From: Escherichia phage N2
Reading direction: 5' to 3' (one strand)
Length of the DNA stretch: 64,000 bases
Sequence record: ON645936.1
Every line of letters starts with the position of its first letter. Position 1 is the stretch's first letter. The translations under genes were made by a program, and so were the position numbers. The notes under the pieces are model-generated. The model had not been told where the DNA came from. It searched no databases and saw nothing but the letters and a program-made list of their open reading frames with translations. Shown piece after piece: positions 1,839-43,080 of this stretch.

Positions 1839-1852
1839 TCTTTGACGATTTA

Positions 1853-1880
1853 AGGGACCTTCGGGTCCCTTTAGTTGTTT
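1853..1880 (+). terminator. Intrinsic terminator after gene 23
   Basis: GGGACC-UUCG-GGUCCC hairpin followed by U-rich tract. Confidence 0.7.
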
Positions 1881-1886
1881 TTATGG

Positions 1887-1894
1887 TATAAATA
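1887..1894 (+). promoter_or_regulatory. Late promoter TATAAATA (gene 24)
   Basis: Exact TATAAATA 28 nt upstream of gp24 ATG. Confidence 0.7.
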
Positions 1895-1921
1895 AATCAT
1901 ATAAACCAAAAGGAAAGCGCA

Positions 1922-3205
1922 ATGGCTAAAATCAACGAACTTCTGCGCGAGTCAACCACAACGAATAGCAACTCAATCGGTCGCCCAAATCTCGTTGCTT
2001 TGACTCGCGCTACCACTAAATTAATATATTCCGACATTGTAGCAACACAAAGAACTAATCAACCTGTTGCTGCTTTTTATGGTATCAAATACCTTAACCC
2101 AGACAATGAATTTACATTTAAAACTGGTGCTACTTACGCTGGCGAAGCTGGGTACGTAGACCGAGAACAAATCACAGAATTAACAGAAGAGTCTAAATTA
2201 ACTCTCAATAAAGGCGATTTATTCAAATATAATAATATCGTTTATAAAGTATTAGAAGATACACCATTTGCTGATATTGAAGAAAGCGATTTAGAATTAG
2301 CTCTTCAGATTGCAATTGTTCTTTTAAAGGTTCGTCTATTTTCTGATGCAGCATCAACAAGCAAATTTGAAAGCTCTGATAGCGAAATTGCGGATGCTAG
2401 ATTCCAGATTAATAAATGGCAAACCGCAGTTAAATCTCGTAAACTTAAAACTGGCATTACAGTTGAATTAGCACAAGATTTAGAAGCAAATGGATTCGAT
2501 GCTCCTAATTTCTTGGAAGATTTGCTTGCAACTGAAATGGCGGATGAAATCAATAAAGATATTCTGCAATCTTTGATTACAGTATCAAAACGCTATAAAG
2601 TTACAGGAATTACTGATACTGGATTCATTGATTTGAGTTATGCATCTGCACCTGAAGCTGGTCGTTCATTATACCGAATGGTGTGTGAAATGGTTTCGCA
2701 TATCCAAAAAGAATCAACTTATACTGCAACGTTCTGTGTTGCTTCAGCTCGTGCCGCTGCGATTCTTGCTGCATCAGGTTGGTTAAAACATAAACCAGAA
2801 GATGATAAATATCTTTCACAAAATGCCTATGGGTTCTTAGCTAATGGTTTACCGCTTTATTGCGATACTAACAGCCCATTAGATTATGTAATCGTTGGCG
2901 TAGTAGAAAATATTGGTGAAAAAGAAATTGTCGGATCAATTTTCTATGCTCCGTATACAGAAGGTCTTGACTTAGATGACCCTGAACATGTAGGTGCATT
3001 TAAAGTTGTAGTTGATCCAGAAAGCTTACAACCATCTATCGGTTTATTGGTTAGATATGCTTTATCTGCAAATCCTTACACTGTAGCAAAAGATGAAAAA
3101 GAAGCAAGAATAATTGATGGTGGAGACATGGATAAAATGGCGGGTCGTTCAGATTTGTCTGTTTTATTAGGTGTTAAATTACCAAAAATTATCGTTGATG
3201 AATAA
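1922..3205 (+). CDS. 24: Head vertex protein gp24 (gp23 paralog)
   Basis: 427 aa, T4 gp24 length and position; TATAAATA late promoter 28 nt upstream; shared motifs with gp23 (ELAQDL, FYAPY). Confidence 0.92.
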   Translation: MAKINELLRESTTTNSNSIGRPNLVALTRATTKLIYSDIVATQRTNQPVAAFYGIKYLNPDNEFTFKTGATYAGEAGYVDREQITELTEESKLTLNKGDLFKYNNIVYKVLEDTPFADIEESDLELALQIAIVLLKVRLFSDAASTSKFESSDSEIADARFQINKWQTAVKSRKLKTGITVELAQDLEANGFDAPNFLEDLLATEMADEINKDILQSLITVSKRYKVTGITDTGFIDLSYASAPEAGRSLYRMVCEMVSHIQKESTYTATFCVASARAAAILAASGWLKHKPEDDKYLSQNAYGFLANGLPLYCDTNSPLDYVIVGVVENIGEKEIVGSIFYAPYTEGLDLDDPEHVGAFKVVVDPESLQPSIGLLVRYALSANPYTVAKDEKEARIIDGGDMDKMAGRSDLSVLLGVKLPKIIVDE

Positions 3206-3207
3206 AA

Positions 3208-3235
3208 CAAAGGGACCAAAAGGTCCCTTTTTATT
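3208..3235. terminator. Bidirectional intrinsic terminator between gene 24 (+) and rnlB (-)
   Basis: AAGGGACC-AAAA-GGUCCCUU hairpin flanked by A/T runs on both sides. Confidence 0.65.
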
Positions 3236-4239
3236 TAACTTACCAATTCAATCCAAGCCGGACGAAGTACATCTTGTACCATTTTAACTAATTCCTTTTT
3301 AATCAAAGAAGGATTATCCGCTTGAGTTAGAGTAATACCTTCACGAGAAGTTTCTTCCAAAATATCTTGAACAGTTAGCCCCATCACCTTTCCAAAATCT
3401 TTTGGACCAATTTCGCCAATTTTAGAAATAACATTATTTACTCGGTTCAGTGTAACGTAGCAAGCTAAAATTCCCAGCAATTTATTATCAGCTTCTGACA
3501 ACTCAACTTTAGCTTTAATAGGCTTATCAGACTTTTTCTTTTCGCTAAATTTAGAGTTCTTGCATTTAATAGCGACACGATTGCCATTAGGCATCCAAGA
3601 AGGATAACAAGGTTTCAATACATATCCTTCAGCAGTAAATACTTCGCCTTTTGCTTCGGCATTCCAAACGCATTTATTTGCATCAACTAATCCAGCATGG
3701 TCTACTGTAAAATTATAATCCTGGACGACAGAATCTAAATCATTTGGCAATTTAATAAGTTCTTCAAATTTACCACGACCCAAAAGTGGAGCCATTTTAA
3801 ATTTGAATGTATTACAGAATGATTCCATCATATAATCATCGACATAAGTCACATCACCACTTTCTGTAGTAACAATAATGTCAAATACATAAAAATCTTT
3901 ATCACCATAATCGACATTCTTCTGAATGCCAGGTCCAGCGAATTCGCCGAAGACTTGATAAGATACAACTGCCGAAGTTTCCATAATATCTTGTACTGCT
4001 TTAATGGAATCAGCGTAATTCTTTAGAATAATTTCATACCCAAAGAAATCTTCAGCAGGAAGAATCGGTCCAGTACGTTTAGCACAAGTTGCTTTATCGC
4101 GTTCAATAATCAGTGAGAAATTTGTGCCATGAATCTTTTCACGAGCTACCCATTCGCCGCCAGTCAATCCTAAACTGTAAAGTTTTTCAATGAACTTAGA
4201 ATTGTAATGATTTTCAAGACTGCTATACTTTTTAAACAT
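3235..4239 (-). CDS. rnlB: RNA ligase 2 (Rnl2)
   Basis: 334 aa; [16 protein letters not shown]... and ligase motif KIHGTN (lysine nucleotidyltransferase motif I) as in T4 Rnl2. Confidence 0.92.
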
Positions 4240-4248
4240 AATTAATCC

Positions 4249-4527
4249 TCAAAATGTAATTTCTAACCAATCACCATCACGCTGATCACTATTGACTTTA
4301 AAGCTAAATCCTTCTTTTCTCAGCCAATCACCAATTTCTTCAGTAATCAATTTATCGCGAGCAGTGCAATAATAACTAAAATATGTTTTACCTTGCTCAG
4401 CTGCTTTATTAGCAAGTTCCGAAAAATCTTTAATAAAACACTCTAGTTTAAACTGTTTACTTTTAAGTGCTTTTTCGCGTAATTGATTAGCGAAAGATTC
4501 ATTTTCATAAAAATCATACTGTTCCAT
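4249..4527 (-). CDS. Hypothetical protein
   Basis: 92-aa ORF tightly packed downstream of rnlB on minus strand; no recognisable motif. Confidence 0.5.
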   Translation of the reverse strand: MEQYDFYENESFANQLREKALKSKQFKLECFIKDFSELANKAAEQGKTYFSYYCTARDKLITEEIGDWLRKEGFSFKVNSDQRDGDWLEITF

Positions 4528-4729
4528 TTTTCACCTTTTTATTAATATGTCTTTTTCTATAGACAACTTTTTCTCGAGTCTCAAATTTATTCTTAGCAGT
4601 CATAGCTCGAGCCCATAATACAGCCACTTCCTTTGCCTGTAAGTTCAATTCACGAGCAATTTCAATGAATGACTTTCCAGACTCATGGAGTGTAAACACC
4701 ACAACCTCAGTTCTCATAATCAATCTCAT
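4514..4729 (-). CDS. Hypothetical protein
   Basis: 71-aa ORF overlapping start of downstream ORF; basic C-terminus; no motif recognised. Confidence 0.45.
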   Translation of the reverse strand: MRLIMRTEVVVFTLHESGKSFIEIARELNLQAKEVAVLWARAMTAKNKFETREKVVYRKRHINKKVKNGTV

Positions 4730-4794
4730 GTTATCGAGTTAATGCCATTATATACAACGTTTTCTGATTGTGTTTTGCGTGCTTTCAAAATGAA

Positions 4795-4815
4795 GAAAGG
4801 GGCCGAAGCCCCTAA
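4795..4815 (-). terminator. Intrinsic terminator after hoc
   Basis: GGGGC-CGAA-GCCCC hairpin with U-run on minus strand. Confidence 0.65.
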
Positions 4816-4817
4816 GA

Positions 4818-5948
4818 TTATGGATAGGTATAGATGATACCAGTTTCTAAAGCAGTTTTATGAATGATGTATCCATTACGCGATTCTTGGACATCAACTT
4901 CTGGATAATCTTTCATCATCTTCTGGAGAGTGTAACGATGCAGGTAGTATTTACTATCTGGATCGTCAGTTTTCCAATCTTTACCTTCTTCAGTCATTTT
5001 TTGGATTTCATCCATAACCCACCAACCGCACCAGATGTAAGCTGAAGTACGATGTGGAAGAGGATGGACATAAGGCAATTCACCTTCTGGTTCTGGAGCA
5101 ACTTTATCAGTTACCTGAACTTGACCTGTTGCTGTAATAGTTTTGCTATCATAATCAGCAGCAGTAACAGTTGCAGTAACTTCAATAGTTTGACTTCCAA
5201 TAGATGAGGTATCAACTGTATATACATTAGTTGACCCTTCTACAGGAGAAGAATCTTTCTTCCACGAGTAAGTAATTTGTGCTTCTTCTGGAGCACCCGT
5301 AACATTAGCCGTAAATGTAGCCGAAGCATCTTTCTGAACGTTAATAGAAGGAGGAGTCAATGTAACCTGTGGATTCATTGTCTTCTTATTAACCGTTAAT
5401 GACACTTCATTAGAAGTAACGCTTAGTGCATCATAATCTGTCGCGGTTACTTGAGCTATACACTTGATTTTTTTAACTCCGCTTGTGGTAGGAGTGTAAT
5501 TGAATGTAGCGCTAGTTGCTTCGTCCACAGGAGAATCATCTACATACCACTGATACGTAGCAGATGCTCCATCAGGTTGAGAAGCTAAGGCAGCAGTAAA
5601 TTGAACTGGGGTTCCGATTACTCCAGCGTCAGGGTTATCAGGAGTTACAGCCAATGTAGTTGACTGAGTTTTATTTTTAACTGTGATAGTTGTTGTCGCT
5701 TCAGCCGTTTCCGGGCCTCCTTCAGAAAGTGTATTTGTTGCAACAACTTTAATTGTTTTTGTTCCAGCAGGTCCTTTTAATACATAATTAAAAGTTGCTT
5801 CAGCTCCATCTTGTGGAACATTATCTACGCTCCAAGCATATGTAATAGGTCCATCTCCAGTTTGACCACTGGGTGTAGCAGTAAACTGCTGAGTCTGATC
5901 TATAACTCCAGTAGGTGTTTTAGGAGTTATATCAACTGTAAAAGTCAT
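4818..5948 (-). CDS. hoc: Highly immunogenic outer capsid protein Hoc (Ig-like domains)
   Basis: 376 aa, T4 Hoc length and position between gene 24 region and inh; repeated Thr/Val-rich Ig-like segments; hairpin terminator downstream. Confidence 0.85.
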   Translation of the reverse strand: MTFTVDITPKTPTGVIDQTQQFTATPSGQTGDGPITYAWSVDNVPQDGAEATFNYVLKGPAGTKTIKVVATNTLSEGGPETAEATTTITVKNKTQSTTLAVTPDNPDAGVIGTPVQFTAALASQPDGASATYQWYVDDSPVDEATSATFNYTPTTSGVKKIKCIAQVTATDYDALSVTSNEVSLTVNKKTMNPQVTLTPPSINVQKDASATFTANVTGAPEEAQITYSWKKDSSPVEGSTNVYTVDTSSIGSQTIEVTATVTAADYDSKTITATGQVQVTDKVAPEPEGELPYVHPLPHRTSAYIWCGWWVMDEIQKMTEEGKDWKTDDPDSKYYLHRYTLQKMMKDYPEVDVQESRNGYIIHKTALETGIIYTYP

Positions 5949-5957
5949 AAGTTATCC

Positions 5958-6638: not shown

Positions 6639-6651
6639 AATATTTCCTCAG

Positions 6652-6659
6652 TATAAATA
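6652..6659 (+). promoter_or_regulatory. Late promoter TATAAATA (uvsW)
   Basis: Exact TATAAATA 30 nt upstream of uvsW ATG. Confidence 0.7.
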
Positions 6660-6688
6660 TAGATATATTTATTACATGGTATTTAGAC

Positions 6689-8200
6689 ATGACTGACATT
6701 AAAGTACATTTTTATGATTTTAGTCACGTGAGAATTGATTGTGAAGAAAGTACATTTCATGAACTCCGTGATTTCTTTAGCTTCGAAGCTGACGGGTATC
6801 GGTTTAATCCGAAGTACAGATATGGCAACTGGGATGGACGAATCCGTCTTTTAGATTATAATCGCCTTCTTCCGTTCGGATTAGTCGGGCAAATTAAAAA
6901 GTTCTGTGATAACTTTGGCTATAAAGCCTGGATTGACCCGCAAATTAACGAAAAAGAAGAATTATCAAGAAAAGATTTTGATGAATGGCTTTCTAAATTA
7001 GAAATCTATTCAGGCAATAAAAGAATTGAACCGCATTGGTATCAAAAAGATGCAGTGTTCGAAGGATTAGTTAATCGTCGTAGAATTCTTAATCTTCCAA
7101 CATCCGCAGGTAAATCCTTAATTCAAGCTTTGCTTGCACGTTATTATTTGGAAAATTATGAAGGTAAAATTCTTATCATTGTTCCAACAACTGCTCTGAC
7201 AACTCAGATGGCTGATGACTTTGTTGACTATCGTTTATTCAGTCATGCAATGATAAAGAAAATCGGTGGTGGAGCATCAAAAGATGATAAATATAAAAAT
7301 GATGCACCAGTCGTTGTTGGTACATGGCAAACTGTAGTTAAACAACCAAAAGAATGGTTCTCACAGTTTGGAATGATGATGAATGATGAATGCCATCTTG
7401 CTACAGGAAAAAGTATTTCATCTATCATATCAGGTTTAAATAACTGCATGTTCAAATTTGGTTTGTCTGGTTCATTACGTGATGGCAAAGCCAATATCAT
7501 GCAGTATGTTGGAATGTTTGGTGAAATATTTAAGCCAGTAACGACTTCTAAATTAATGGAAGATGGACAAGTAACTGAGCTAAAAATTAATAGTATTTTT
7601 CTTCGCTATCCCGATGAGTTCACTACTAAATTAAAGGGAAAAACTTACCAAGAAGAAATAAAAATTATTACTGGGCTCAGTAAAAGAAATAAATGGATCG
7701 CTAAATTAGCTATTAAGCTTGCGCAAAAAGATGAAAACGCTTTTGTCATGTTTAAACATGTATCGCATGGTAAAGCTATTTTCGATTTAATTAAAAATGA
7801 ATACGATAAAGTTTATTACGTATCAGGGGAAGTTGATACCGAAACCCGCAACGTAATGAAAACCTTAGCTGAAAATGGTAAAGGAATAATTATAGTAGCG
7901 AGTTATGGTGTATTTTCTACTGGTATTTCAGTTAAAAATCTGCATCATGTTGTTTTAGCGCACGGCGTTAAATCAAAAATCATTGTATTACAAACAATCG
8001 GTCGTGTATTACGTAAGCATGGTTCTAAAACAGTCGCAACAGTCTGGGACCTCATAGATGATTGTGGCGTTAAGCCAAAATCTGCTAATACGAAAAAGAA
8101 ATATGTCCATTTGAACTATCTTTTAAAACACGGCATTGATCGTATTCAGCGCTACGCAGATGAAAAATTTAATTACGTAATGAAAACAGTTAATTTATAA
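6689..8200 (+). CDS. uvsW: UvsW DNA/RNA helicase (SF2)
   Basis: 503 aa; Walker A-like PTSAGKS, DEAD-like MNDECH, helicase C motifs (TIGRVLR); TATAAATA 30 nt upstream. Confidence 0.9.
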   Translation: MTDIKVHFYDFSHVRIDCEESTFHELRDFFSFEADGYRFNPKYRYGNWDGRIRLLDYNRLLPFGLVGQIKKFCDNFGYKAWIDPQINEKEELSRKDFDEWLSKLEIYSGNKRIEPHWYQKDAVFEGLVNRRRILNLPTSAGKSLIQALLARYYLENYEGKILIIVPTTALTTQMADDFVDYRLFSHAMIKKIGGGASKDDKYKNDAPVVVGTWQTVVKQPKEWFSQFGMMMNDECHLATGKSISSIISGLNNCMFKFGLSGSLRDGKANIMQYVGMFGEIFKPVTTSKLMEDGQVTELKINSIFLRYPDEFTTKLKGKTYQEEIKIITGLSKRNKWIAKLAIKLAQKDENAFVMFKHVSHGKAIFDLIKNEYDKVYYVSGEVDTETRNVMKTLAENGKGIIIVASYGVFSTGISVKNLHHVVLAHGVKSKIIVLQTIGRVLRKHGSKTVATVWDLIDDCGVKPKSANTKKKYVHLNYLLKHGIDRIQRYADEKFNYVMKTVNL

Positions 8201-8216
8201 GGGCTTCGGCCCTTTG
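8199..8216 (+). terminator. Hairpin after uvsW
   Basis: AAGGGC-UUCG-GCCCUU hairpin; weak U-tract. Confidence 0.45.
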
Positions 8217-8225
8217 GAGAAAAAG

Positions 8226-8456: not shown

Positions 8457-8511
8457 ATTAAAAAAGGCCCAACCAAAAAGGAAGGGCCAAAACTATAGAC
8501 TAAAGGTCACA

Positions 8512-8679: not shown

Positions 8680-8704
8680 GATTGTCTCCTTTTGAATATA
8701 GTAA

Positions 8705-8712
8705 TATTTATA
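8705..8712 (-). promoter_or_regulatory. Late promoter TATAAATA (minus strand, small Zn-ribbon ORF / uvsY region)
   Basis: Reverse complement of tatttata gives TATAAATA 26 nt upstream of the MSDKICVVCK start. Confidence 0.55.
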
Positions 8713-10534: not shown

Positions 10535-10559
10535 ATTTAGCTCCTTTATTTATCATATT

Positions 10560-17169: not shown

Positions 17170-17210
17170 AATCTACTATAACACAACACGAGGGACTTGT
17201 AAACTACATT
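17170..17210 (-). promoter_or_regulatory. T4-type early promoter (GTTTAC-N18-TATAGT), minus strand
   Basis: rc reads GTTTACAAGTCCCTCGTGTTGTGTTATAGT; overlaps 3' end of Alt-paralog ORF; near-duplicate at ~30857-30897. Confidence 0.6.
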
Positions 17211-17562
17211 TTGAACTTTTTAGTACGCGTAATAGGCATGCGTCGATTTTATACTGTTTCATTGTTTGAAGAGCAGTATCAAAAACCGCATTAATGACAC
17301 CAATTGGATTTCCACCCAAGTTTTTAAGTTTAACTAATGATAGTTTCTCATTAACACCTATCATTACGATATGCATCATTTTATCGCCTGGCTTAACGTT
17401 TTTATTTGTATCACCGCCAGAGGTGTATGTACAAAATCTAAATCCAGGAAGCACGCTTTCTTCGCCGGCTTGAATAGCAAAAATTTGAGGTATTTTATGC
17501 TTAGGATTTAAGTTAACAACCGGCGCCGAAGCGCCGTCAAATAATTCTGTAATAAGTTCCAT
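17176..17562 (-). CDS. Alt N-terminal-domain paralog (putative packaged internal protein)
   Basis: 128 aa; about 60 percent identical to first ~120 aa of adjacent Alt (MELITELFD...NLNPK.KIPQIF...CTYTSGGDTN...GDKMMHIV...QYKIDAC). Confidence 0.6.
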   Translation of the reverse strand: MELITELFDGASAPVVNLNPKHKIPQIFAIQAGEESVLPGFRFCTYTSGGDTNKNVKPGDKMMHIVMIGVNEKLSLVKLKNLGGNPIGVINAVFDTALQTMKQYKIDACLLRVLKSSKCSLQVPRVVL

Positions 17563-27084: not shown

Positions 27085-27317
27085 AGTACGCCATACACCC
27101 TTTGTGCTTCAACTAATCCATCAAAATCCAATTTGAGATGTGTTATTTGATCACCATCACCTGGATTCACAATTACTAATACTGAACGAGGAGTTTCGGT
27201 AATAACACGAACCGATGTTTCAGGAAATCGTTCAGAAACCTTATTTACCAATTCCTGTGCAAATAGTTTAACTTTTTCTTGGAATTCTTTAACAGTAATC
27301 GGTTTTTCACTTAGCAT
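27081..27317 (-). CDS. Hypothetical protein
   Basis: 78-aa ORF in coupled array. Confidence 0.45.
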   Translation of the reverse strand: MLSEKPITVKEFQEKVKLFAQELVNKVSERFPETSVRVITETPRSVLVIVNPGDGDQITHLKLDFDGLVEAQRVYGVL

Positions 27318-27838
27318 GTTGATCCCAGCTCCTTACTTTCAACGTTTTTAACTAATTTGACAGAAACTAATTCAGCATCTTGAGTAATCATTACCGGACC
27401 TTCTTCATACTCTTCAAGATATTCTAGAGCTTTCTTTTTAGCTTCTTCCTTCGTATCAGTTTGAGCATAGATATAAAACATACAACCAGTAATACCTACT
27501 ACTTTCCACTTAATTTCTTTATCAGTTTTAATTTCAAATTTACTTACAGAATCATCTTTTTGAACTTCTTCGAAAAAAGAATATTCTAGCATATAAGCAA
27601 TTGAAAACAACGGGCTAACTTTATAGGATTCACCCATTACATCAACAGCTTTATACCAACAATCATCAATTTCGCGTTTAATGCTAATAACATTTTTCGC
27701 AGGATCTATTTTTACTTTAAATGAATTTTCCCCAATAAACTGGGCAATTCGTTTATTAGCCCCGCAAGTTTCATTAAAAATATCTTTATATCCAGCTTTA
27801 AAGCGATAAACCTTATCTTCTTCAAACCATTCGCTCAT
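27311..27838 (-). CDS. Hypothetical protein
   Basis: 175-aa ORF downstream of early promoter unit at ~27860-27900. Confidence 0.5.
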   Translation of the reverse strand: MSEWFEEDKVYRFKAGYKDIFNETCGANKRIAQFIGENSFKVKIDPAKNVISIKREIDDCWYKAVDVMGESYKVSPLFSIAYMLEYSFFEEVQKDDSVSKFEIKTDKEIKWKVVGITGCMFYIYAQTDTKEEAKKKALEYLEEYEEGPVMITQDAELVSVKLVKNVESKELGSTC

Positions 27839-28176: not shown

Positions 28177-28240
28177 ATTTACCTCACATAATTTTCTTCA
28201 AGCCAATCAATAATAGACAAAGTTTCATGGTGCCAAGCCA

Positions 28241-29459
<1,219 letters not shown>

Positions 29460-29463
<4 letters not shown>

Positions 29464-32509: not shown

Positions 32510-33688
32510 TTAAAAATATTTTTTAAAACTCATCATAACTTTATCATCAACATCATTATCAATCTGTGCTACAAGGTAAGATGACAGTTCTACTTCTTGT
32601 GGTGCAGATTGAACATTATCAGAATTAAGGTATTCACGAATCCAAGGATATGGATGTTTAACCGGAGCATCGGTAATTGGACATGGAAGACCACACTGTT
32701 TCATACGAGATACAGTTAAGTAATCAATAAAGCTCCACATGCTATTTGTATTTAATCCAGGAACATCGCCATCTTTAAATAAATGAACTGCCCAATCTTT
32801 TTCTTGGCGGTTAACTTCCATGAAAATATCAACTGCTTCTTGTTCACACTCTTGAGCAATTTTAACCCATTCATCACCATCAGTACCGGATTGAAGTTGA
32901 CGAATAATATATTGAGTGCCTTTAAGGTGAAGCTGCTCATCACGTGCAATGAACTTCATAATCTTGGCATTACCTTCCATGATTTCCATGTTCTTATGGA
33001 AGTTAAAGGTACATGCAAAAGATACATAAAAACGAATAGCTTCTAAGGCATTAATAACGTGCAAACAGAGGTAAAGAGATTTCATTAGTGCTCGTTTAGC
33101 TTCGGCTTCTTGTTTAATAGCTCGATTTAAACGAAAAACAGCATCAGGAGATTCTTTAGCTAGTTCTGTAAATTCTTTAGCATTTTCCCATTCACGGGTT
33201 TTAGTCAGAACATCATCATAATAGCGACCGATAGATTCAGCACGTTTCATAATAGCTTTATCTAGTACAATCTCATCAAATACCTTCGATGGATCAGTAT
33301 AAAGATTTCGCATGATATGAGTATATGAACGACTGTGAATAGTTTCACTAAAAGTCCATGTAGCAACCCATGTATCAAGGCTTGGGTCTGAAATTAATGA
33401 CATAAGTACAGCAGACGGCGCACGACCTTGAATACTATCAAGTAATGATTGATACTTCAGATTATTAGTAAAAATATTTTGTTGATACTGAGGAAGCTTA
33501 TTAAACTGTGCAGCATCCATCATCAAGTTTACTTCTTCCGGACGCCAGAAAAACGAGAGCGAACGTTCAATAAGTTCTTCAAATACTCGATGCCGTTGAA
33601 TATCATAACGCGCAATACCAAGACCTGAACCAAAAAACATAGGTTCTTTTAAAACATCGACCTGTTTAGTATTAAAAACTGTACTCAT
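32510..33688 (-). CDS. nrdB: Ribonucleotide reductase beta subunit NrdB (uninterrupted)
   Basis: 392-aa contiguous ORF with class Ia R2 diiron ligand regions; no intron gap; hairpin terminator after stop. Confidence 0.94.
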   Translation of the reverse strand: MSTVFNTKQVDVLKEPMFFGSGLGIARYDIQRHRVFEELIERSLSFFWRPEEVNLMMDAAQFNKLPQYQQNIFTNNLKYQSLLDSIQGRAPSAVLMSLISDPSLDTWVATWTFSETIHSRSYTHIMRNLYTDPSKVFDEIVLDKAIMKRAESIGRYYDDVLTKTREWENAKEFTELAKESPDAVFRLNRAIKQEAEAKRALMKSLYLCLHVINALEAIRFYVSFACTFNFHKNMEIMEGNAKIMKFIARDEQLHLKGTQYIIRQLQSGTDGDEWVKIAQECEQEAVDIFMEVNRQEKDWAVHLFKDGDVPGLNTNSMWSFIDYLTVSRMKQCGLPCPITDAPVKHPYPWIREYLNSDNVQSAPQEVELSSYLVAQIDNDVDDKVMMSFKKYF

Positions 33689-35280
33689 TATTTTGTCCTG
33701 TAAACTAAATTTCCACAGTCCCAGATTCTTCTAAGACCATTTGCATAACAATTTTCTACTTCAGTTATTGTATCATCATAATTTTTAAGCTTGTTTTTAA
33801 GCTTATGTTTCATATAGCTTGAGCGGTGAAATACCTCTCCTTTATCGACGTACCAATAACATGGCTCAGAGATATGACTAAATTCCATGACAGAGTCATA
33901 AACATTTGATAATGTACTGCACCATCTTCGATTGCCATAAGATAGACAATTAATTCCTTTTAATAATTTTGAGGCTCCTCCTACAACACAAACCCCTAAT
34001 TTTGAACACATCCTTAAAAGTTCATCACCTGAGCTATATCTAGATTTACCGATAGAAATAATTTGAACTAACTCATTATTGTAATAAAGTCCTTTATACG
34101 TATGAGCTCCTGAGCAAAATCCTTGAAGATGATTCTTATTAATAAATTCTTTTGCCTCATCCTTATTAACAAACCGTGCTTTGCATTTTCGGGCTGGTAT
34201 TCTTTCTGATAATCCTAATTTATGCTTTATAATGGATTTCCAGATCTCTCTTTTTGTATCATCAATCCATTCATTTTCGAAGATGTGAAGTAATTGAATT
34301 CCTTGTGCTTCACACATCTCTGTCTTCATCAAATGATAAGTTTCTTTAATTTTATCTGTTTCCTTTGACCCGCTAGAATGCCAATAAATTCCATCGTATT
34401 CTATAGCCAATTTTTTCTCAGGAATGTAAATATCTAATTCATACGGAGGAATAATTTTTCTAGTTTCTACGCAATCAAATCCTAGATCTAAAATGAATTG
34501 CTCTATAGAACTTTGAGTATAATGAACGTCAATTAGTCCTTTGGATGAAAGAGCTCTATAAGCCGTCATCCGAGAACAATTTGCTAATTGTTGTAGTTCT
34601 TCTATAGAAATTTTGTAATTGATTTTATCTAGTATATCATGATTAATATGACCGTTATTTTTAATAGATTTTCCTATAGATGAATATAACGATGCCTTAT
34701 ATTCTTCAGTCCAATTTAATTTAGTCTTCTTAGATTTTTCGCGAGATTTTCTAGAATGCAGAATATCAACTGATTTACCGTTTTCTATAACTTTTCTCGC
34801 TTCTTTCACACTTTCTAATTGTGAATTATGCGTTACCCCATATCGTTCAATTAAAGTTTTTCTATTTTTATTTCTTGAAATTTTTTGATGAGTTGTTCCA
34901 TATTTTTCTAAAGAATTTTTGTGTTGAAGTTCAGACAAATATTTTTTATATTTTTCTTTTCCGCCAAAATTTGTATCACGGCTTTGAATTCTCTTATCCG
35001 CGAAAAATATCCCTGCGCAGGATTTACTACATGTTGCTGGAAATACACGTTTCTTTGCTGTTTTCAGAGAAATGAAATTTCCACAAACTGCACATTTTAG
35101 ATCGTTAATGTCAATGCCTTCCATAATTTGGAACACATTGAGCTTAAAATCTATTCCATCAGTTAGAAGAGCTTTATCTTCTTCTGTTAGTCTAGATTTA
35201 AGTTTTTCTTCTCCAAATGGAAGAAACTTTCCGTTTTTGTATATATTATCAAACATAGCGTTATTCTTAGTTAACCACAT
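33688..35280 (-). CDS. Multidomain nuclease-like protein at the mobE locus (Zn-finger, YGxTH repeats, HTH-like, Vsr/DUF559-like PD-(D/E)xK motif, unknown C-terminal domain)
   Basis: 530-aa ORF; CAVCGN...CSKSC; EKYGTTHQK/ERYGVTHNS repeats; PYELDIYIPEKKLAIEYDGIYWHS nuclease-like motif; TAATG-coupled to nrdB. Confidence 0.6.
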   Translation of the reverse strand: MWLTKNNAMFDNIYKNGKFLPFGEEKLKSRLTEEDKALLTDGIDFKLNVFQIMEGIDINDLKCAVCGNFISLKTAKKRVFPATCSKSCAGIFFADKRIQSRDTNFGGKEKYKKYLSELQHKNSLEKYGTTHQKISRNKNRKTLIERYGVTHNSQLESVKEARKVIENGKSVDILHSRKSREKSKKTKLNWTEEYKASLYSSIGKSIKNNGHINHDILDKINYKISIEELQQLANCSRMTAYRALSSKGLIDVHYTQSSIEQFILDLGFDCVETRKIIPPYELDIYIPEKKLAIEYDGIYWHSSGSKETDKIKETYHLMKTEMCEAQGIQLLHIFENEWIDDTKREIWKSIIKHKLGLSERIPARKCKARFVNKDEAKEFINKNHLQGFCSGAHTYKGLYYNNELVQIISIGKSRYSSGDELLRMCSKLGVCVVGGASKLLKGINCLSYGNRRWCSTLSNVYDSVMEFSHISEPCYWYVDKGEVFHRSSYMKHKLKNKLKNYDDTITEVENCYANGLRRIWDCGNLVYRTK

Positions 35281-35296
35281 CCTTGTGGTAATTATA

Positions 35297-37561
35297 TCAT
35301 AATTTACAGGATGAACAATCTTCAGCTTTTGGAGTTTCTATTTCGTAATCATCAGTACCGGAACCGTCGCGGGTATTATGATAATAGAAATTTTTTCCGC
35401 CAAAATACCAAAAATACAAAAGGTCATCAATCATTATTGACATTGGAACCTTTCCTTTTGGAAAAATCTGCGGGTCATAATATGTATTCGCTGAAGCTGA
35501 TTGACATACCCATTTCAACATAATAGCTACTTGCGTAAGATAAGGTTTATTACCTTTCTTAGCTAATTTCCACGTATAATCATAGAGGTCTATGTTATGC
35601 TCAATATTGGGCACGACTTGATTAAAGGAACCCTCTTTTGATTCTTTAACAGAGACTGGTCCACGTGGAGGCTCGATACCGTTTGTACTGTTAGAAACTT
35701 GGGAAGATGACTCACATGGCATAAGTGCTGATAATGTGCTATTACGGATGCCAAAGAGCTTAAGGTCTTCCCGCAGCGACGACCAGTCACAAACGTATTT
35801 TGGAGCTGCGATTTGGTCAATCTTTTTATTGTACCAGTCGATAGGTAATTCGCCTCGAGACCAACGAGTGTCTGAATAATATTCGCAAGGTCCTTTTTCT
35901 TTGGCGAGCTTAATGGATGCTTTAATGAGTCCATACTGTAATCTCTCAAATAGTTCATGTGTTAAATCGTTAGCATCTTCATAAGAAGCAAAGTTACTTG
36001 CCAGCCAAGCTGCATAGTTAGTAACACCTACACCGAGGTTACGACGCTTTTTAGCTTTTTCTGCTTCAGGAACTGGATATCCTTGGTAATCCAAAAGATT
36101 ATCAAGAGCACGAACTTGAACTTCTGCCAATTCATTAATTTTATCTTGGTCTTGCCAATCGAAGTTATCTAATACAAATGCGCTAAGGGTACACAATCCA
36201 ATTTCAGCATCAGGACTATTCACATCATTTGTTGGAATAGCAATTTCACAGCACAAGTTACTCTGACGAATAGGTGCCTTTTCACGAATAAACGGAGTAT
36301 AGTTATTCGTATTATCAATGAACTGCACATAAATCCTTGCTGTTCCTGAACGTTCAGTCATGAGCAATTCAAATAGTTCACGGGCTTTAATACGCTTTTT
36401 GCGAATATTAGGGTCTTTTTCTGCGGCTTCATACAATTCACGGAAACGGTCTTGGTCTTTAAAATAAGAATAATAAAGCTCGCCACCCATTTCGTGTGGA
36501 CTGAACAAAGTAATGTAGTCGTTCTTTCCAAAACGTTCCATCATCAAATCATTCAGTTGAACGCCATAATCCATATGACGGATACGGTTTTCTTCTACGC
36601 CTTTGTTATTTTTCAAAACGAGAAGATTTTCAACTTCCAAATGCCAAATAGGATAATAAGCAGTAGCAGCGCCGCCACGAATTCCGCCTTGTGAACATGA
36701 TTTAACAGCAGTCTGAAAATGTTTCCAAAAAGGAATAACGCCAGTATGACGCACTTCACCTGTGCCAATCTTAGAACCTTCGGCACGAATCATACCAACG
36801 TTAATACCAATTCCAGCGCGTTTGGAGATATATTCAACAATTGAAGCAGAAGCCTTATTGATAGACTTCAGCGAATCACCTGCTTCAATAACAACGCATG
36901 AACTAAACTGTCGAGTTGGAGTACGACAACCAGCCATAATAGGAGTTGGCAATGAAATCTGTCGAGTAGATACTGCTTCATAAAAACGGATAACGTGTTT
37001 TAATCTATCAACAGGTTCATCTTGATGCAATGCCATTCCAATAGTCATAAATGCAAACTGTGGAGTTTCATAAATTTGACCAGTGGTTTTATCTTTAACG
37101 AGATATTTTTCTTTTAATTGCATCGCCCCGGAATAAGTAAATTCCATATCCCGCTCGTGCTTAATTTTTGATTCTAAAAATGTAATTTCTTCTGCTGAAT
37201 ATTTTGACAATAATTCAGGGTCATATTTACCTTCATTTACACAGTAAGAAATATGGTCAATAAATGAACGGGGCTCATACTGTCCGTACACGTGTTTACG
37301 AAGAGCAAACATTAAACAGCGTGCAGCTACGTATTGATAATCAGGCTCTTCAACTGAAATAGAATTCGCAGCAGCCTTAATTACAATGGTTTGAATGTCA
37401 TCAGTGGTCATTCCATCACGGAGATATGATTTAATATTTTCATATAATTCATAAGGATCTACTGATGTTCCTTCAGCTGCCCAAGATAAAACTTTAATAA
37501 TTTTTTGTGGGTCAAAGCTCTGAGAAACACCACTACTTTTGATAACATTAATTAATTGCAT
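35297..37561 (-). CDS. nrdA: Ribonucleotide reductase alpha subunit NrdA
   Basis: Track ORF trimmed to MQLINVIKSSG... (755 aa) with GAGGA RBS; ATP-cone plus class I RNR catalytic core. Confidence 0.94.
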   Translation of the reverse strand: MQLINVIKSSGVSQSFDPQKIIKVLSWAAEGTSVDPYELYENIKSYLRDGMTTDDIQTIVIKAAANSISVEEPDYQYVAARCLMFALRKHVYGQYEPRSFIDHISYCVNEGKYDPELLSKYSAEEITFLESKIKHERDMEFTYSGAMQLKEKYLVKDKTTGQIYETPQFAFMTIGMALHQDEPVDRLKHVIRFYEAVSTRQISLPTPIMAGCRTPTRQFSSCVVIEAGDSLKSINKASASIVEYISKRAGIGINVGMIRAEGSKIGTGEVRHTGVIPFWKHFQTAVKSCSQGGIRGGAATAYYPIWHLEVENLLVLKNNKGVEENRIRHMDYGVQLNDLMMERFGKNDYITLFSPHEMGGELYYSYFKDQDRFRELYEAAEKDPNIRKKRIKARELFELLMTERSGTARIYVQFIDNTNNYTPFIREKAPIRQSNLCCEIAIPTNDVNSPDAEIGLCTLSAFVLDNFDWQDQDKINELAEVQVRALDNLLDYQGYPVPEAEKAKKRRNLGVGVTNYAAWLASNFASYEDANDLTHELFERLQYGLIKASIKLAKEKGPCEYYSDTRWSRGELPIDWYNKKIDQIAAPKYVCDWSSLREDLKLFGIRNSTLSALMPCESSSQVSNSTNGIEPPRGPVSVKESKEGSFNQVVPNIEHNIDLYDYTWKLAKKGNKPYLTQVAIMLKWVCQSASANTYYDPQIFPKGKVPMSIMIDDLLYFWYFGGKNFYYHNTRDGSGTDDYEIETPKAEDCSSCKL

Positions 37562-37586
37562 AAGTCCTCTGTAGTAAGTTACCCCA

Positions 37587-37594
37587 TATAAATA
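37587..37594 (+). promoter_or_regulatory. Late promoter TATAAATA driving the free-standing GIY-YIG endonuclease gene
   Basis: Exact TATAAATA 23 nt upstream of ATG, AGGAG RBS between; lies in the divergent gap next to nrdA start. Confidence 0.65.
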
Positions 37595-37616
37595 TAATTT
37601 TATATAGGAGAATATA

Positions 37617-38348
37617 ATGAAATCTGGAATATATGCTATTATAAACACTAAAACTAATAAGCACTATATAGGAAGTGCAATTAATTTTGAAGAACGATGG
37701 AAACGACACTTTAAAGATTTAGATAATGGAAATCATCATTCAATAAAGCTGCAGCGTTCTTATAATAAGCATGGTAAAGATGCTTTCGTATGTAAAATCA
37801 TAGAAGAACTTCCATACGAAAAATCTATCATTATTGAACGTGAAAATTATTGGATGCATGAATATGACTCAAAGGAAAATGGGTATAATATAGCAGACGC
37901 ATCGTTTGGGGATACCTTATCTCATCACCCAAGAAAGCAAGAAATCCTTAATAAAATTTCAAATGCAATTAAAAATAATAATTCAAAATTATCACCAGAA
38001 GAACTTAAGCAAAAACATGGTAGACCTAGAGACATCAAAGGTAAAACTATAGAAGAACACTATGGGTTAGATCGTGCTATAGAAATAAGCAAAAAGTTCC
38101 AAGAAAGAAACGCTGCACTTAATATGAAAGGCATCAATAATCCATATTACGGACAGACGCATACCAATGAAGTTAGAAAACGAATTTCTGACTCACAGAG
38201 AGGTAAAAAGAAACCCCATCTAAGAGTAAGTATAGATGGGGTAGAATATCCAACAATAGCAGAAGCTGTGCGTCAAACCGGAATAAGCAGAAAACTTATA
38301 TCTAAAAGATGCGCTCTAGATTGCTGGGAATCATATTTATACTGCTAA
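37617..38348 (+). CDS. Free-standing GIY-YIG homing endonuclease, I-TevI-like
   Basis: 243 aa; [10 protein letters not shown]...YIGSA...ERWKRHF...SIKLQRS...IIERENYW closely parallels I-TevI catalytic domain; NUMOD3-like [14 protein letters not shown]; C-terminal HTH-like tail. Confidence 0.85.
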
Positions 38349-38582
38349 AGTTCTACATTCGTCATATTGTTTTTCCGTTAAAACAGTAATATCATAATAG
38401 CAATCAGAAGAAGTTTTAACTGTGGAAATTTTATTATCAAAATACTCACGAGTCATTTTATGAGTATAATATTTTTTGCCATAAATGATAATAGGCTGTT
38501 CTGGTCCTGGAACTTCTAACTCGCTTGGATTAGGAAGTGTAAAAAGAACGATACCAGAAGTATCTTTAAATCGTAAAATCAT
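38337..38582 (-). CDS. Hypothetical protein between td and nrdA
   Basis: Track ORF 38337..38594 trimmed to MILRFKD... start with GAGGA RBS; 3' end overlaps the GIY-YIG gene convergently. Confidence 0.4.
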
Positions 38583-38605
38583 ATATCCTCGCAATTAAAT
38601 TAAAA

Positions 38606-38917
38606 TTATACCGCCATTTTTCCTTTCAAGACACCGTGGGACTGATAATCTTTGAGAACGAAATCTTTAGGCCTGAGTTTAAGAATGTATTCCAATTGTT
38701 CTTTAGTAGAAAGATAACGGAATTTATAAGGTAATCCGCCTATTACCAGTTCACAAAGCTCTTTAGATTCACGACGCAAAATTTCTTTACATTGTTCTAC
38801 GTGATTCATATAGATATGAGTATTACCACCAGAAAATATCAAATCTCCTGGAATAAGATTACACATCTTAGCTACAATATGAACTAACGCAGCATATGAT
38901 GCAATATTAAATGGAAG
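38606..38917 (-). CDS. td: Thymidylate synthase, exon 2
   Basis: LPFNIASYA... continues exon 1 ...DVFLG to give conserved TS motif DVFLGLPFNIASYA; 103 codons. Confidence 0.9.
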   Translation of the reverse strand, partial: LPFNIASYAALVHIVAKMCNLIPGDLIFSGGNTHIYMNHVEQCKEILRRESKELCELVIGGLPYKFRYLSTKEQLEYILKLRPKDFVLKDYQSHGVLKGKMAV

Positions 38918-39171
38918 CATTATGTTCAGATAAGGTCGTTAATCTTATCCCGGAATTATATCCAGCTGCATGTCACCATACAGATCAGACTATATCTCCA
39001 TCTTGATGAAGCAAGATGTCTATCGTTTCGAGTCACTTGACCCTACTCCCCAAAGGGATAGTCGTTAGGCATTTAGTTCAAAAGAACATTTAGCACGGGA
39101 TTGTCTACTAGAGAGGTTCCCCGTTTAGATAGATTACAAGTATAAGTCACCTTATACTCAGGCCTCAATTA
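38918..39171 (-). ncRNA. Group I self-splicing intron in td, ORF-less (254 nt)
   Basis: Begins UAAUUGAGGCCUGAGUAUAAGGUGACUUAUAC... and ends ...CUGAACAUAAUG like T4 td intron; splits TS between G183 and L184; short GUUC-UUUU-GAAC hairpin where T4 has I-TevI ORF. Confidence 0.85.
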
Positions 39172-39720
39172 ACCCAAGAACACGTCAACACTTCTTTGAT
39201 ACCACTGCAAATCCAAATAGCCATTACGCACATTAAACTGATAGAACATATGACAAGGCGGTAATGCCATTTGCTTGAGTTCAGCTGGATTCCATGCAGA
39301 AACAACTTGACGTCTATCATTTGGCAGTTTTTTAATACGATCAATAACTTCTACAATTTGGTCTACACCACCAAAATCACGCCACTGTTTTCCATAAATT
39401 GGACCAAGTTCACCACTATGATATCCTAAATCTTTTGCTTGATTTTCGTAATTTTCATCCCAGACTGTTTTGCCTTGAATTAATGAATCGTGTTGAATTA
39501 ATCGTAAATCATTGACATTTGTGCTTCCTGATAAAAACCAAAGTAGCTCAGCAATGCAAGCTTTCCAGGCGAGCTTCTTAGTTGTTACTGCAGGAAAACC
39601 TTTAGTTAAATCCCAGCGTAATTTAGTACCGAACAAAGCAATTGTTCCTGTGCCTGTTCGGTCATCAGTTTCATAGCCATTTTCAAAAATGTCTTTAATT
39701 AAATCTTGGTATTGTTTCAT
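39172..39720 (-). CDS. td: Thymidylate synthase, exon 1
   Basis: 183 codons MKQYQDLIKDIFENGY... with catalytic PPCH; in-frame UAA is first intron codon. Confidence 0.9.
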
Positions 39721-39765
39721 TTAGTACCTTATATAAATTATAATACATTTTATGAAGCTAAATAA

Positions 39766-40128
39766 TCAATACGGTTTAGCATCAAATTTTCTTTCGATTT
39801 CAGGAGTGAAATATAATTCTTTACCACGTTTGGAAAAACGACCAATAATATGATAATTATTCTCATCAAACGTGATATTGCCAATATCCATAGCTTTCAA
39901 CCAAATATCGATATTTCTATCTAGTTTTATATCAAAATTCCAATACGGAGAACTATTACCGAAAATACTGCAAGCGGATTCAGTGCAATAACTGCTGCTA
40001 TAAATCTTGTCTTTGGGAACTACTAATTGATAGACGCCTTTAATAAACTGAGGACCCTGCCATTTTGGTTGTTTCGCGTCTTTTTCTAATAGAATAGGGT
40101 AATAATTAAAGTTCATATTTTCCGCCAC
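39766..40128 (-). CDS. Hypothetical protein inserted between frd and td
   Basis: 120-aa ORF; no recognisable motif; occupies junction where T4 frd and td overlap. Confidence 0.5.
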   Translation of the reverse strand: MAENMNFNYYPILLEKDAKQPKWQGPQFIKGVYQLVVPKDKIYSSSYCTESACSIFGNSSPYWNFDIKLDRNIDIWLKAMDIGNITFDENNYHIIGRFSKRGKELYFTPEIERKFDAKPY

Positions 40129-40136
40129 GCGTTATT

Positions 40137-40963
<827 letters not shown>

Positions 40964-40973
40964 ATTATTTTCC

Positions 40974-41216
40974 TTAAACAGACTTTTTCACAATTTTCCA
41001 ATCAGCTTTAAACTGTTCAACGTCAGAATGGTAAATCCAGAATCCTGCGCTTTCTCCATCCTCATAAAGAGGGCATCCATCGCATTCATCTTCCCATCCC
41101 ATATCACGTAAAAGTTGTTCAGCTTTTTCAACGAGTTCAGAATCTTTACCGATGATATTAAAATACCATTTACCTCTAACTTCTGAATCTTTGATGCTCT
41201 GGCGTTGTAATCTCAT
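40974..41216 (-). CDS. Hypothetical protein
   Basis: 80-aa ORF downstream of early promoter unit at ~41235-41275. Confidence 0.45.
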   Translation of the reverse strand: MRLQRQSIKDSEVRGKWYFNIIGKDSELVEKAEQLLRDMGWEDECDGCPLYEDGESAGFWIYHSDVEQFKADWKIVKKSV

Positions 41217-41234
41217 TTTATTCTCCTTAGTTGA

Positions 41235-41275
41235 TAGGGTAATAGTATCACACTACTACCCTGTTGTAAACTACT
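41235..41275 (-). promoter_or_regulatory. T4-type early promoter, minus strand
   Basis: rc GTTTAC-N18-TACTAT upstream of ORF 40974..41216. Confidence 0.55.
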
Positions 41276-41651
41276 TTTTGAAAGTTTTTCGCAAAAGTTC
41301 AATGATTTCATCTACATTGTTTTCGTCTACAATGCAGTGAATTTTTGTTACGCCAGAAATCTTGTCTTCGACTTCATCTTCTTCAGAAGTCGGTTCTTTA
41401 TACTCACGAAAACAATGAAATTCGTCTTCGCAAATTTCTAAAAGTCTATCTTTGAGATAAAAATGCTTTCCATTTGCACATTCAATGTGTTTTACTGCTT
41501 TGTATCCATTGGCGACTGAAACTTCTTTAACTTCAAACCATCCGCCATTATCTCGAATAGCTTTAACTATTGATGAATTAGAACGTGGACTATAATTAAT
41601 AAATGTATCAATAAGTCTTGGAACAAGTTCATACTTTCTACCAGTATACAT
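41271..41651 (-). CDS. Hypothetical protein
   Basis: 126-aa ORF; hairpin terminator upstream. Confidence 0.45.
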   Translation of the reverse strand: MYTGRKYELVPRLIDTFINYSPRSNSSIVKAIRDNGGWFEVKEVSVANGYKAVKHIECANGKHFYLKDRLLEICEDEFHCFREYKEPTSEEDEVEDKISGVTKIHCIVDENNVDEIIELLRKTFKK

Positions 41652-41695
41652 TGCGTTTTCCTCATTTTAATAGGGGCTTGATAGCCCCTTGATAA

Positions 41696-41923
41696 TTACT
41701 GCTCAATAAATCCTGTGTAAAATTCTACATCTTCAGCATCCATACCGTCACAATATTCATTAACCATAAATTGTTTAAGACGATTTAAAGGACCTTCAAT
41801 AACAACTGAAACATTGCAATTAGGATCATTTAGTGCGCTTATGATACGGAGTTCAGGATAACGATTACAAATAATTTCTTCAATATATTCAAAATCAACA
41901 ACATCAATATCAATTTTAGCCAT
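41696..41923 (-). CDS. Hypothetical protein
   Basis: Track ORF 41696..42052 trimmed to MAKIDIDVV... (75 aa) because 5' part is a promoter/terminator cassette. Confidence 0.45.
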
Positions 41924-41964
41924 GTTATTTTCCTCTTTAATCATCATCAGCAGTATTGCCGATA

Positions 41965-42005
41965 GTTGTATAGTACCACAGTATGCTTTGGTTGTAAACC
42001 GTTTT
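41965..42005 (-). promoter_or_regulatory. T4-type early promoter, minus strand (in ~80-bp terminator-promoter cassette)
   Basis: rc GTTTAC-N18-TACTAT; immediately downstream of gene 32 terminator hairpin; cassette duplicated at ~58291-58370. Confidence 0.55.
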
Positions 42006-42029
42006 GTGAAAAAATTTTTGAAATAAAAA

Positions 42030-42055
42030 AAGGGGACCTCTAGGGTCCCCAATTA
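42030..42055 (-). terminator. Intrinsic terminator after gene 32
   Basis: GGGGACCC-UAGA-GGGUCCCC hairpin followed by U-run, then early promoter. Confidence 0.7.
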
Positions 42056-42072
42056 ATTAGTAATATAATCTA

Positions 42073-42981
42073 TTAAAGGTCATTCAAAAGGTCATCCAGG
42101 TCCGTGTCATCAGCACTAGATGAACTGCCAGAGCTTGAGCTCATAAAATCATCTTCAGTTTTTGTTTTGAAGTCATCAACATTGAATGCATCCAAATCAT
42201 CAGCAACTTTATCAGCTTTCTTAGCGGCAGTTGCTGCGGCACCACCCATAGCAGCAGTTCCCATAACTTGACTGAACTTAGTGCTCAGTTCTTCAAACGA
42301 TTTGAATTTATCTTTAGAAGTCATTTCAGAAAGGTCAACCATTTGTTCGAACAGTTCTTTCTGGAAAGATTCATCATCAATGTTTGGAATCGCAGATTGA
42401 TTCAGGAATTTAGATTCGTCGTAGTTACTAAAACCAGAAACTTGTTTAACTTTCAGTACAAAGTTAGCACCTTCCCACGGACAAGTTACATCAACCGGAG
42501 TTTCACCCATTTCAACATCAACTGCAATCATCGCGTTGATTTTATCCCAGATTTTCTTACCGAAACGGTATTTAAATACTTTACCTTCGTTTTCTGGAGC
42601 AGCTGGGTCTTTTACTACAAGAATGTTAGCCCAGTAAGAAGTTTTACGTTTAACAAGACTGTACTCTTTATTGTCAGTGTTGTACAGATCATTTTTACTG
42701 ATGTACTGACATACTGGACAAGAATCGTAATCACCGTAGGTAGATGAGCATGTTTCGATATACCATTTACCATTTTTCTTGAAACCGTGATTTACAAGAA
42801 GTGCGAATGGTGCTTGTTCATCATTTTTAGACGGAAGAAAACGAATTACTGCTTGACCGTTACCCGCATTATCGAGTTTCAGTTTCCACTCGCCTTTATC
42901 TTCAGAAGAAAAACCACCTTTATTTCCAGCCAGTTTAGCCATTTGCGCAGCGAGTTCAGCAGTAGATTTACGTTTAAACAT
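42073..42981 (-). CDS. 32: Single-stranded DNA-binding protein gp32
   Basis: 302 aa; [17 protein letters not shown]... N-terminus, zinc-binding H/C cluster, acidic Ser/Asp-rich C-terminus. Confidence 0.95.
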
Positions 42982-43075
42982 TTTTATTTCCTTTTTAATT
43001 TAATTAACAGTTGGTGCTATGACGATGTATGACCTCATAGCTGGTCAGTGAGATAATTATAATCTATTTATAATA
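42982..43075 (-). promoter_or_regulatory. Gene 32 leader: late promoter and translational operator/pseudoknot region
   Basis: TATAAATA on minus strand at ~43065-43072; GCUAUGAGGUCAUACAUCGUCAUAGCAC hairpin/pseudoknot-like element then A/U-rich unstructured stretch before AUG. Confidence 0.55.
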
Positions 43076-43080
43076 AGCAA

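Follow-up and report, generated by a model that had tools for sequence, protein, structure and literature searches.

Escherichia phage N2 (record ON645936.1) was analysed over one stretch of 64,000 nucleotides (nt), referred to below as the window, with respect to the homing endonuclease genes and group I introns that it carries or lacks by comparison with phage T4. The window is colinear with positions 104673-168903 of T4 (NC_000866, of which 168903 is the end), most of the blocks aligned by BLAST being 94-98% identical. Its first 25 kb are about 96-97% identical to hundreds of Escherichia and Shigella phages of the T4 type (Tequatrovirus); the phage collection that was searched comprised 50,697 records, and 443 records covered most of this part, with no identical public record found for it among the phage records searched. 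Six endonuclease genes of T4 (segD, segE, segG, mobE, I-TevIII and I-TevI) are gone from the window and two others are present, namely hef and a free-standing relative of I-TevI. The open reading frames (ORFs), the intron and the empty sites concerned are listed in Table 1.

Table 1. Positions in the window of the genes, intron and empty sites considered
Feature	Position	Strand	Description
Gene 23-24 intergenic region, empty segD site	1839..1921	.	83 bp; BLAST against T4 and annotation
inh-uvsW intergenic region, empty segE site	6639..6688	.	50 bp; BLAST against T4 and annotation
nrdB	32510..33688	-	single 392-aa ORF; no intron, no I-TevIII
hef, free-standing homing endonuclease gene	33688..35280	-	530 aa; replaces T4 nrdB.1 and mobE
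nrdA	35297..37561	-	start ATG at 37561-37559; flanked by both free-standing endonuclease genes
Mobile unit with free-standing I-TevI paralogue	37567..38349	+	783 bp; replaces T4 nrdA.1
I-TevI paralogue ORF	37617-38348	+	243 aa; strand opposite to that of its neighbours
nrdA.2 homologue (DUF5496)	38337..38594	-	convergent with the I-TevI paralogue gene, overlaps its 3' end
td exon 2	38606..38917	-	conceptual splicing
td group I intron, no ORF	38918..39171	-	254 nt; Rfam and alignment to T4
td exon 1	39172..39720	-	conceptual splicing
Gene 32-59 intergenic region, empty segG site	42982..43080	.	99 bp; BLAST against T4 and annotation

Empty seg sites and an uninterrupted nrdB

In the RefSeq annotation of T4, segD (GIY-YIG) lies between genes 23 and 24, segE between inh and uvsW, and segG between genes 32 and 59. 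An earlier reading of the window, made from the sequence only, had given the same positions, and both the annotation and the alignment to T4 bear them out. As judged by BLAST, window 1850-1909 stands in place of T4 106522-107310 (segD), window 6676-6694 in place of T4 112045-112679 (segE), and window 43045-43079 in place of T4 147919-148541 (segG). The 23/24 gap contains a terminator hairpin (1852-1871) followed by a T-run, the late-promoter motif TATAAATA (1887-1894) and a ribosome-binding site; the sequence-only reading had described it as 84 bp of terminator and promoter, which is right as to these contents and wrong as to the length. The same motif, TATAAATA, is found at 6652-6659 in the inh/uvsW gap. 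For this gap and for the one between genes 32 and 59, the lengths previously given (50 and about 100 bp) agree with those in Table 1.

The nrdB gene, also said to be uninterrupted, is so indeed. Window 33012/33015 abuts T4 138457/139058 in the BLAST alignment, the T4 intron position being skipped, so that the nrdB intron of T4 (about 600 bp), which would fall at window positions ~33008-33015, is absent. An Rfam search of the window revealed no second group I intron besides that of td, and neither an extra endonuclease gene nor an intron was seen between 43 and 64 kb (Rfam and alignment to T4). The absences of segD, segE, segG and the nrdB intron are real and clean, without gene remnants.

To what extent is this condition shared by other phages? 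T4 segD was found in 55 records of the collection, segE in 159 and segG in 142; as a comparison figure, about 730 records match the td region of the window. The endonuclease gene counts given in a published table are 15 for T4, 1 for T2, 2 for RB14 and none for RB26 (PMC2993671). T4 is an endonuclease-rich outlier; most public genomes have empty seg sites, as the window does. The T4 sites of segD, segE, segG, mobE and I-TevIII are conserved and recognisable in the window, but all five genes are missing from it, as from most sequenced Tequatrovirus genomes.

An identity jump was noticed at one of these sites. Identity to T4 is 87.6% over 41221-43044 (frd.2 to gene 32) and 98.7% over 43080-44537 (gene 59), the change occurring exactly at the empty segG site, in agreement with published reports that nuclease genes mark the boundaries of exchange.

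hef between nrdA and nrdB

The T4 annotation shows nrdB.1 and mobE (HNH) between nrdA and nrdB, and a defective I-TevIII within the nrdB intron. The gene that takes their place in the window matches PHROG 3339 (E=3e-151) and is 99.6% identical, over 1593 bp, to the hef gene of phage U5 (AY262133.2), which is annotated 'Hef, homing endonuclease'; there are 3 differences in 530 aa between the two proteins. Matches to Vsr-like nucleases were weak: 22 bits for Pfam PF18741 (cut-off 38.2; E=1.7e-4) and E=0.029 for PDB 3r3p (I-Bth0305I) over residues 272-353. One report places proteins of the Hef type among the Vsr-like EDxHD nucleases (PMC3239194), and in another hef is reported to cleave nrdB (PMC2988022). 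In the collection only 16 records carry hef, all of them at least 99.4% identical, a near-identity that would fit a recently spreading element.

The sequence-only reading had placed endonuclease-type genes at nrdA-nrdB and td-nrdA 'instead' of those of T4. Both are present, but 'instead' is misplaced at nrdA-nrdB: this site is occupied in T4 too, by mobE, and the difference is which endonuclease gene sits there. The occurrence of hef at this site in phage U5 was reportedly described by Sandegren, Nord and Sjoberg in 2005, the replacement being said to be on record since then. The U5 gene shares with that of the window its position as well as a nearly identical sequence; the two phages differ in that nrdB has an intron in U5 and none in the window. 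They differ also at the beginning of hef: the annotated U5 start ATG is AAG in the window, where the ORF starts 14 codons later. In this region (35280-35322) the next ATG, at 35280, is the start in the window and is preceded by a good ribosome-binding site; in U5, hef may thus have been annotated with 14 codons too many.

A peculiarity of the adjoining nrdB gene was also noted. Codons ~171-198 of NrdB (window 33089-33178) correspond to a stretch of 25-29 aa that exists in three unrelated versions in the window, T4 and U5, the rest of the protein being nearly identical. This hypervariable patch lies 70-150 nt upstream of the intron insertion site, adjoining hef or mobE, and may be a hot spot of recombination or of endonuclease evasion.

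A td intron devoid of I-TevI

The td gene is split by a group I intron, which was overlooked, together with the loss of I-TevI, in the sequence-only reading. The match to Rfam RF00028 covers 38966-39181 on the minus strand, with 72.6 bits against a gathering score of 50 (E=1.7e-16). Exon 1 ends in ...TTGGGT and exon 2 follows ...ATAATG, the insertion site being the same as in T4. Once joined, the exons code for a thymidylate synthase of 286 aa in which 271 of the 287 aligned positions, stop included, are those of T4 (94%). No homing endonuclease ORF is held by the intron: in the alignment to T4, I-TevI is cleanly absent, T4 143705-144479 (775 bp, holding I-TevI) being replaced by a 12-nt hairpin, GTTC-TTTT-GAAC, at 39076-39087. 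The window and T4 introns thus differ in length (254 against about 1016 nt) through the swap of the I-TevI ORF and its upstream region for this hairpin, but the 5' 84 nt and the 3' 158 nt are 96-100% identical to those of T4. The hairpin at 38999-39018 has remained paired through a compensatory change from A:U to U:A; the conserved core and this compensatory pair are consistent with a maintained ribozyme.

Introns of this kind are not confined to N2. We found 42 public records with td introns lacking the I-TevI gene, in at least three forms: one of 254 nt (window, CJY920 and 236Ecol005PP), one of 262 nt (CE1) and one of 320 nt (HP3), the last retaining the coding sequence for the C-terminus of I-TevI. 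From these three or more forms it follows that I-TevI was lost repeatedly. Dozens of public genomes carry the ORF-less td intron, largely without remark.

Could the intron of the window be an ancestral form that was never invaded, rather than a product of I-TevI loss? The 12-nt hairpin is no simple deletion product of the T4 sequence, and the CE1 and HP3 forms do keep P6a arms of the T4 type (HP3 having in addition the I-TevI C-terminal sequence). However, the remainder of the intron is 96-100% identical to introns that contain I-TevI, which implies a very recent common ancestor, and at least two of the other forms are clearly deletion derivatives, so that loss is frequent. We hold an ancestral status to be rather unlikely, and loss of I-TevI by deletion is the reading retained below.

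Two neighbouring observations concern introns and their target sites. The region of the I-TevI homing site (39172-39219 and 38885-38917) is unusually polymorphic at synonymous sites among close relatives; between the window and T4, 10 of 48 exon-1 bases and 4 of 33 exon-2 bases differ around the intron, and the T4 cleavage motif CAACG is CAAAG in the window. In CJY920, an ORF-less group I intron of about 310 nt is found in nrdB (1196-1472 of the piece examined; Rfam, 71.7 bits), an intron that the window does not have.

A free-standing paralogue of I-TevI between nrdA and td

The second endonuclease gene forms part of a mobile unit inserted next to nrdA. It has its own late-promoter motif (TATAAATA, 37587-37594) and a Shine-Dalgarno sequence, AGGAG (37606-37610). 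The predicted protein matches the GIY-YIG family, PF01541 in Pfam, with 55.5 bits (cut-off 22.6), and the I-TevI catalytic domain (PDB 1mk0) with E=1e-39; the GIY and YIG motifs and the aligned Arg (ERWKRH) and Glu (IERENYW) motifs are all present. Further on, NUMOD3 is matched with 28 bits (cut-off 20.4), and the I-TevI_DNA-bd model with 21.4 bits, which is under its cut-off of 27. Residues 156-239, with the C-terminal helix-turn-helix, match the DNA-binding domain of I-TevI (PDB 1i3j, E=2.8e-7).

The protein aligns with I-TevI over its full length, with 46% identity overall, distributed very unevenly: 70% in the catalytic domain, 41% in the linker, 5% (1 residue in 20) in the zinc finger and 31% in the DNA-binding domain. 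The zinc finger, which is the distance determinant of I-TevI, is missing, the aligned segment having only this one identical residue in 20 and zero cysteines. Residues K26, C39 and T95 of I-TevI are replaced in the paralogue by E, N and S, and substitutions at these positions are reported to alter the cleavage preference of I-TevI (PMC5009752). In spite of these changes the GIY-YIG domain, NUMOD3, the C-terminal helix-turn-helix and the late-promoter motif are common to both genes, and the lengths are nearly equal (243 versus 245 aa). I-TevI is intron-borne, whereas the gene of the window is free-standing, between nrdA and nrdA.2 and on the opposite strand. Judging by sequence and position outside the td intron, it is a paralogue of I-TevI and not its orthologue. 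The ratio of nonsynonymous to synonymous substitution (dN/dS) ranges from 0.03 to 0.11, and all six other copies checked have an intact ORF; therefore, the gene encodes a working protein under purifying selection. About 25 genomes have an annotation for this free-standing paralogue, which is uncharacterised.

Transfer of the paralogue between phage genera

At 98% identity or more, the paralogue is restricted to seven Tequatrovirus phages (CJY920, Ozark, TB004, LH2, ECO07P5, RPN226 and sutha). Of about 150 records of Klebsiella phages of the Jiaodavirus type, 18 have it with 90-93% identity; it is a minority gene in both genera. Comparison with the Klebsiella phage KP179 gives 93% identity across 37567-38349 and 72-78% in the flanking nrdA, nrdB and td, with sharp steps at 37567 and 38349. 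This abrupt step, from 93% to about 72%, indicates that the 783-bp unit moved horizontally, and recently, between the two genera. The shared neighbour in both is the nrdA start codon, 6-8 bp from the left edge of the unit. The synonymous divergence (dS) is 0.36 among the Klebsiella copies as against 0.05-0.08 among the coliphage copies; this greater divergence suggests, and does not prove, that the paralogue came from Klebsiella phages.

As of 2010, convincing evidence for the movement of a free-standing endonuclease gene between phage genera was stated in a review to be lacking (PMC2993671). The identity step found here is clean evidence for such a crossing.

Beside the unit, the 3' end of td (38600-38800) has an identity of 0.53-0.87 among the paralogue carriers, and the adjoining endonuclease gene one of 97-100%; the 3' end of td marks a recombination boundary directly beside the mobile gene.

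Is the paralogue tied to the ORF-less intron?

The paralogue gene and the td intron are separated by 570 bp. Co-conversion is reported to reach up to 2 kb in T4 crosses (PMC2790892), so that the gene is within co-conversion range of the intron. The two elements do not, for all that, consistently co-occur. The paralogue sits beside an intron-less td in ECO07P5 and Ozark, beside an intron containing I-TevI in sutha, LH2 and TB004, and beside an ORF-less intron only in the window and CJY920; in the two Klebsiella carriers examined, KP179 and KpV477, td is intron-less. All three states of td are thus represented among the carriers. The ORF-less intron is found in 2 of 8 paralogue carriers against 42 of about 700 records overall, in samples that are few and not independent.

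Attempts to find the target of the enzyme in the sequences gave no positive indication. A sliding comparison of identity among carriers, aimed at co-conversion tracts, detected no carrier-specific haplotype and hence led to no inferred target: the 5' end of nrdA is 97-100% identical in carriers and non-carriers alike, and the 3' end of td is highly polymorphic among carriers. As to an operator of the I-TevI style, the 55 nt upstream of the paralogue matched td, nrdA and the T4 nrdA.1-td region no better than shuffled sequences did, in a comparison of low power (the I-TevI control is a 10-nt match).

Two proposals were weighed for the link between gene and intron. The paralogue may have arrived recently from Klebsiella T4-like phages and may functionally replace I-TevI, its break in the nrdA-td region co-converting the ORF-less intron into intron-less phages. 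We consider this a doubtful proposition; if it were true, the locus would capture a natural case of endonucleases being exchanged between an intron and the region beside it. The second proposal is strict collaborative homing, in which the paralogue would cut the intron insertion site of an intron-less td and form with the intron a two-part element like F-CphI and the psbA intron of cyanophage S-PM2. The homology to I-TevI over the whole length, C-terminal helix-turn-helix included, and the short distance to the intron are in line with it. In addition, I-BmoI and I-TevI are reported to have a common target despite their low identity (PMC5009752), and such arrangements have been proposed to arise when a free-standing endonuclease takes over from an intron-borne one (PMC10448857). 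Yet a gene at least 98% identical lies beside intron-less td genes (ECO07P5, Ozark) and beside I-TevI-containing introns (sutha, LH2, TB004), and KP179 and KpV477 carry it with an intron-less td. Moreover, the DNA-binding domain has only 31% identity to that of I-TevI, the zinc finger is gone and the three residues of cleavage preference (K26, C39, T95) are changed, and the neighbour conserved in both genera is the start of nrdA, not the td insertion site. Strict collaborative homing is accordingly improbable, more so than the replacement of I-TevI.

A looser relation, the incidental mobilisation of the intron in trans by a nearby break, would be plausible. The closest precedents are the trans homing of mobE and I-TevIII (Wilson & Edgell 2009) and collaborative homing (Zeng, Bonocora & Shub 2009), both with a free-standing gene less than 2 kb from an intron without a working endonuclease, as here. 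They differ from the present case in that the free-standing gene is here a paralogue of the usual endonuclease of the intron and is also found beside intron-less td genes. The only modestly new point of the analysis is there: a paralogue of I-TevI lies 570 bp from an ORF-less td intron and might move it in trans, with evidence that leans against strict dependence. The presence of td in three states beside the same paralogue in close relatives (no intron, intron with I-TevI, ORF-less intron) provides a natural system in which trans homing and the cycle of gain and loss of intron endonucleases could be studied.

Origin of the differences from T4 and predicted behaviour in mixed infection

Taken as a whole, the explanation that we favour is very probably correct: the window represents the right-hand 64 kb of a genome of the T4 type (Tequatrovirus) whose differences from T4 in selfish elements arose site by site, through homing and deletion. 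At every site on its own, homing would bring in an endonuclease gene and deletion would remove it, which would leave the phage with a selfish-element content unlike that of T4. The full combination of hef, the paralogue and the 254-nt td intron is found in one other public record, CJY920 (unverified and unannotated). That the differences are mere artefacts, i.e. assembly collapse or a laboratory deletion derivative of T4, has a practically nil probability and is effectively refuted: no point was found in its favour, a divergence of 3-6% runs across the entire window, the junctions are clean and the functional motifs present, the empty state of these sites prevails across hundreds of independent genomes, and CJY920 independently combines hef, the I-TevI paralogue and the 254-nt intron.

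The sequence-only reading had concluded that the backbone is that of a T4 relative with a distinct complement of mobile elements. The complement does differ from that of T4, but it is ordinary for the genus. All the elements are of known kinds and such variation is normal for this group of phages; T-even phages are known to differ widely in homing endonuclease content, so that the finding itself is routine. Its main use is correct annotation, which tells at which loci a cross with T4 would lead to conversion and which genes N2 could pass on to other phages.

If N2 behaves as T4 biology would predict, then in a mixed infection with T4 the SegE, SegG and MobE endonucleases would cut the window genome near the empty sites, and T4 markers would be converted into it. 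The hef and I-TevI paralogue genes would spread the opposite way, into T4. The td gene would be safe from I-TevI because the intron splits the homing site, and the ORF-less intron, 570 bp from the free-standing paralogue, would be co-converted after any break made by that enzyme in the vicinity. Several points count against parts of this scheme. SegD reportedly fails to promote the homing of its own gene (Sokolov et al. 2018), so that the empty site between genes 23 and 24 is perhaps no target of conversion. In the MobE nick region, codon 42 of the window nrdB is an Arg codon, CGT, which matches neither the susceptible T2 allele (AAG) nor that of T4 (CGG), and the susceptibility of this nrdB to MobE is not predictable from it. 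Lastly, hef of the window and the I-TevI paralogue are endonuclease genes by prediction.

Other differences between the window and T4

Four ORFs of the window, all on the minus strand, are absent from T4: 27311-27838 (175 aa), 29143-29463 (106 aa), 39766-40128 (120 aa) and 40718-40963 (81 aa), one of them being wedged between frd and td, which overlap in T4. They were considered as candidate endonuclease genes and rejected: they have no Pfam match and no nuclease domain, and their PHROGs are families of unknown function only. Conversely, T4 133646-133966 (about 320 bp, with cd.4 and most of cd.5) is without counterpart at window 28204-28213. Gene 37 (51225-54075), which codes for the distal tail fibre, is 70-78% identical to that of T4 or cannot be aligned with it, as expected for a determinant of host range. 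Finally, a single ORF of 128 aa (17176-17562, minus strand) spans alt.-2 and alt.-1 of T4, which the T4 record explains as an ancient duplication of alt interrupted by a stop codon; the copy in the window appears to be unsplit.

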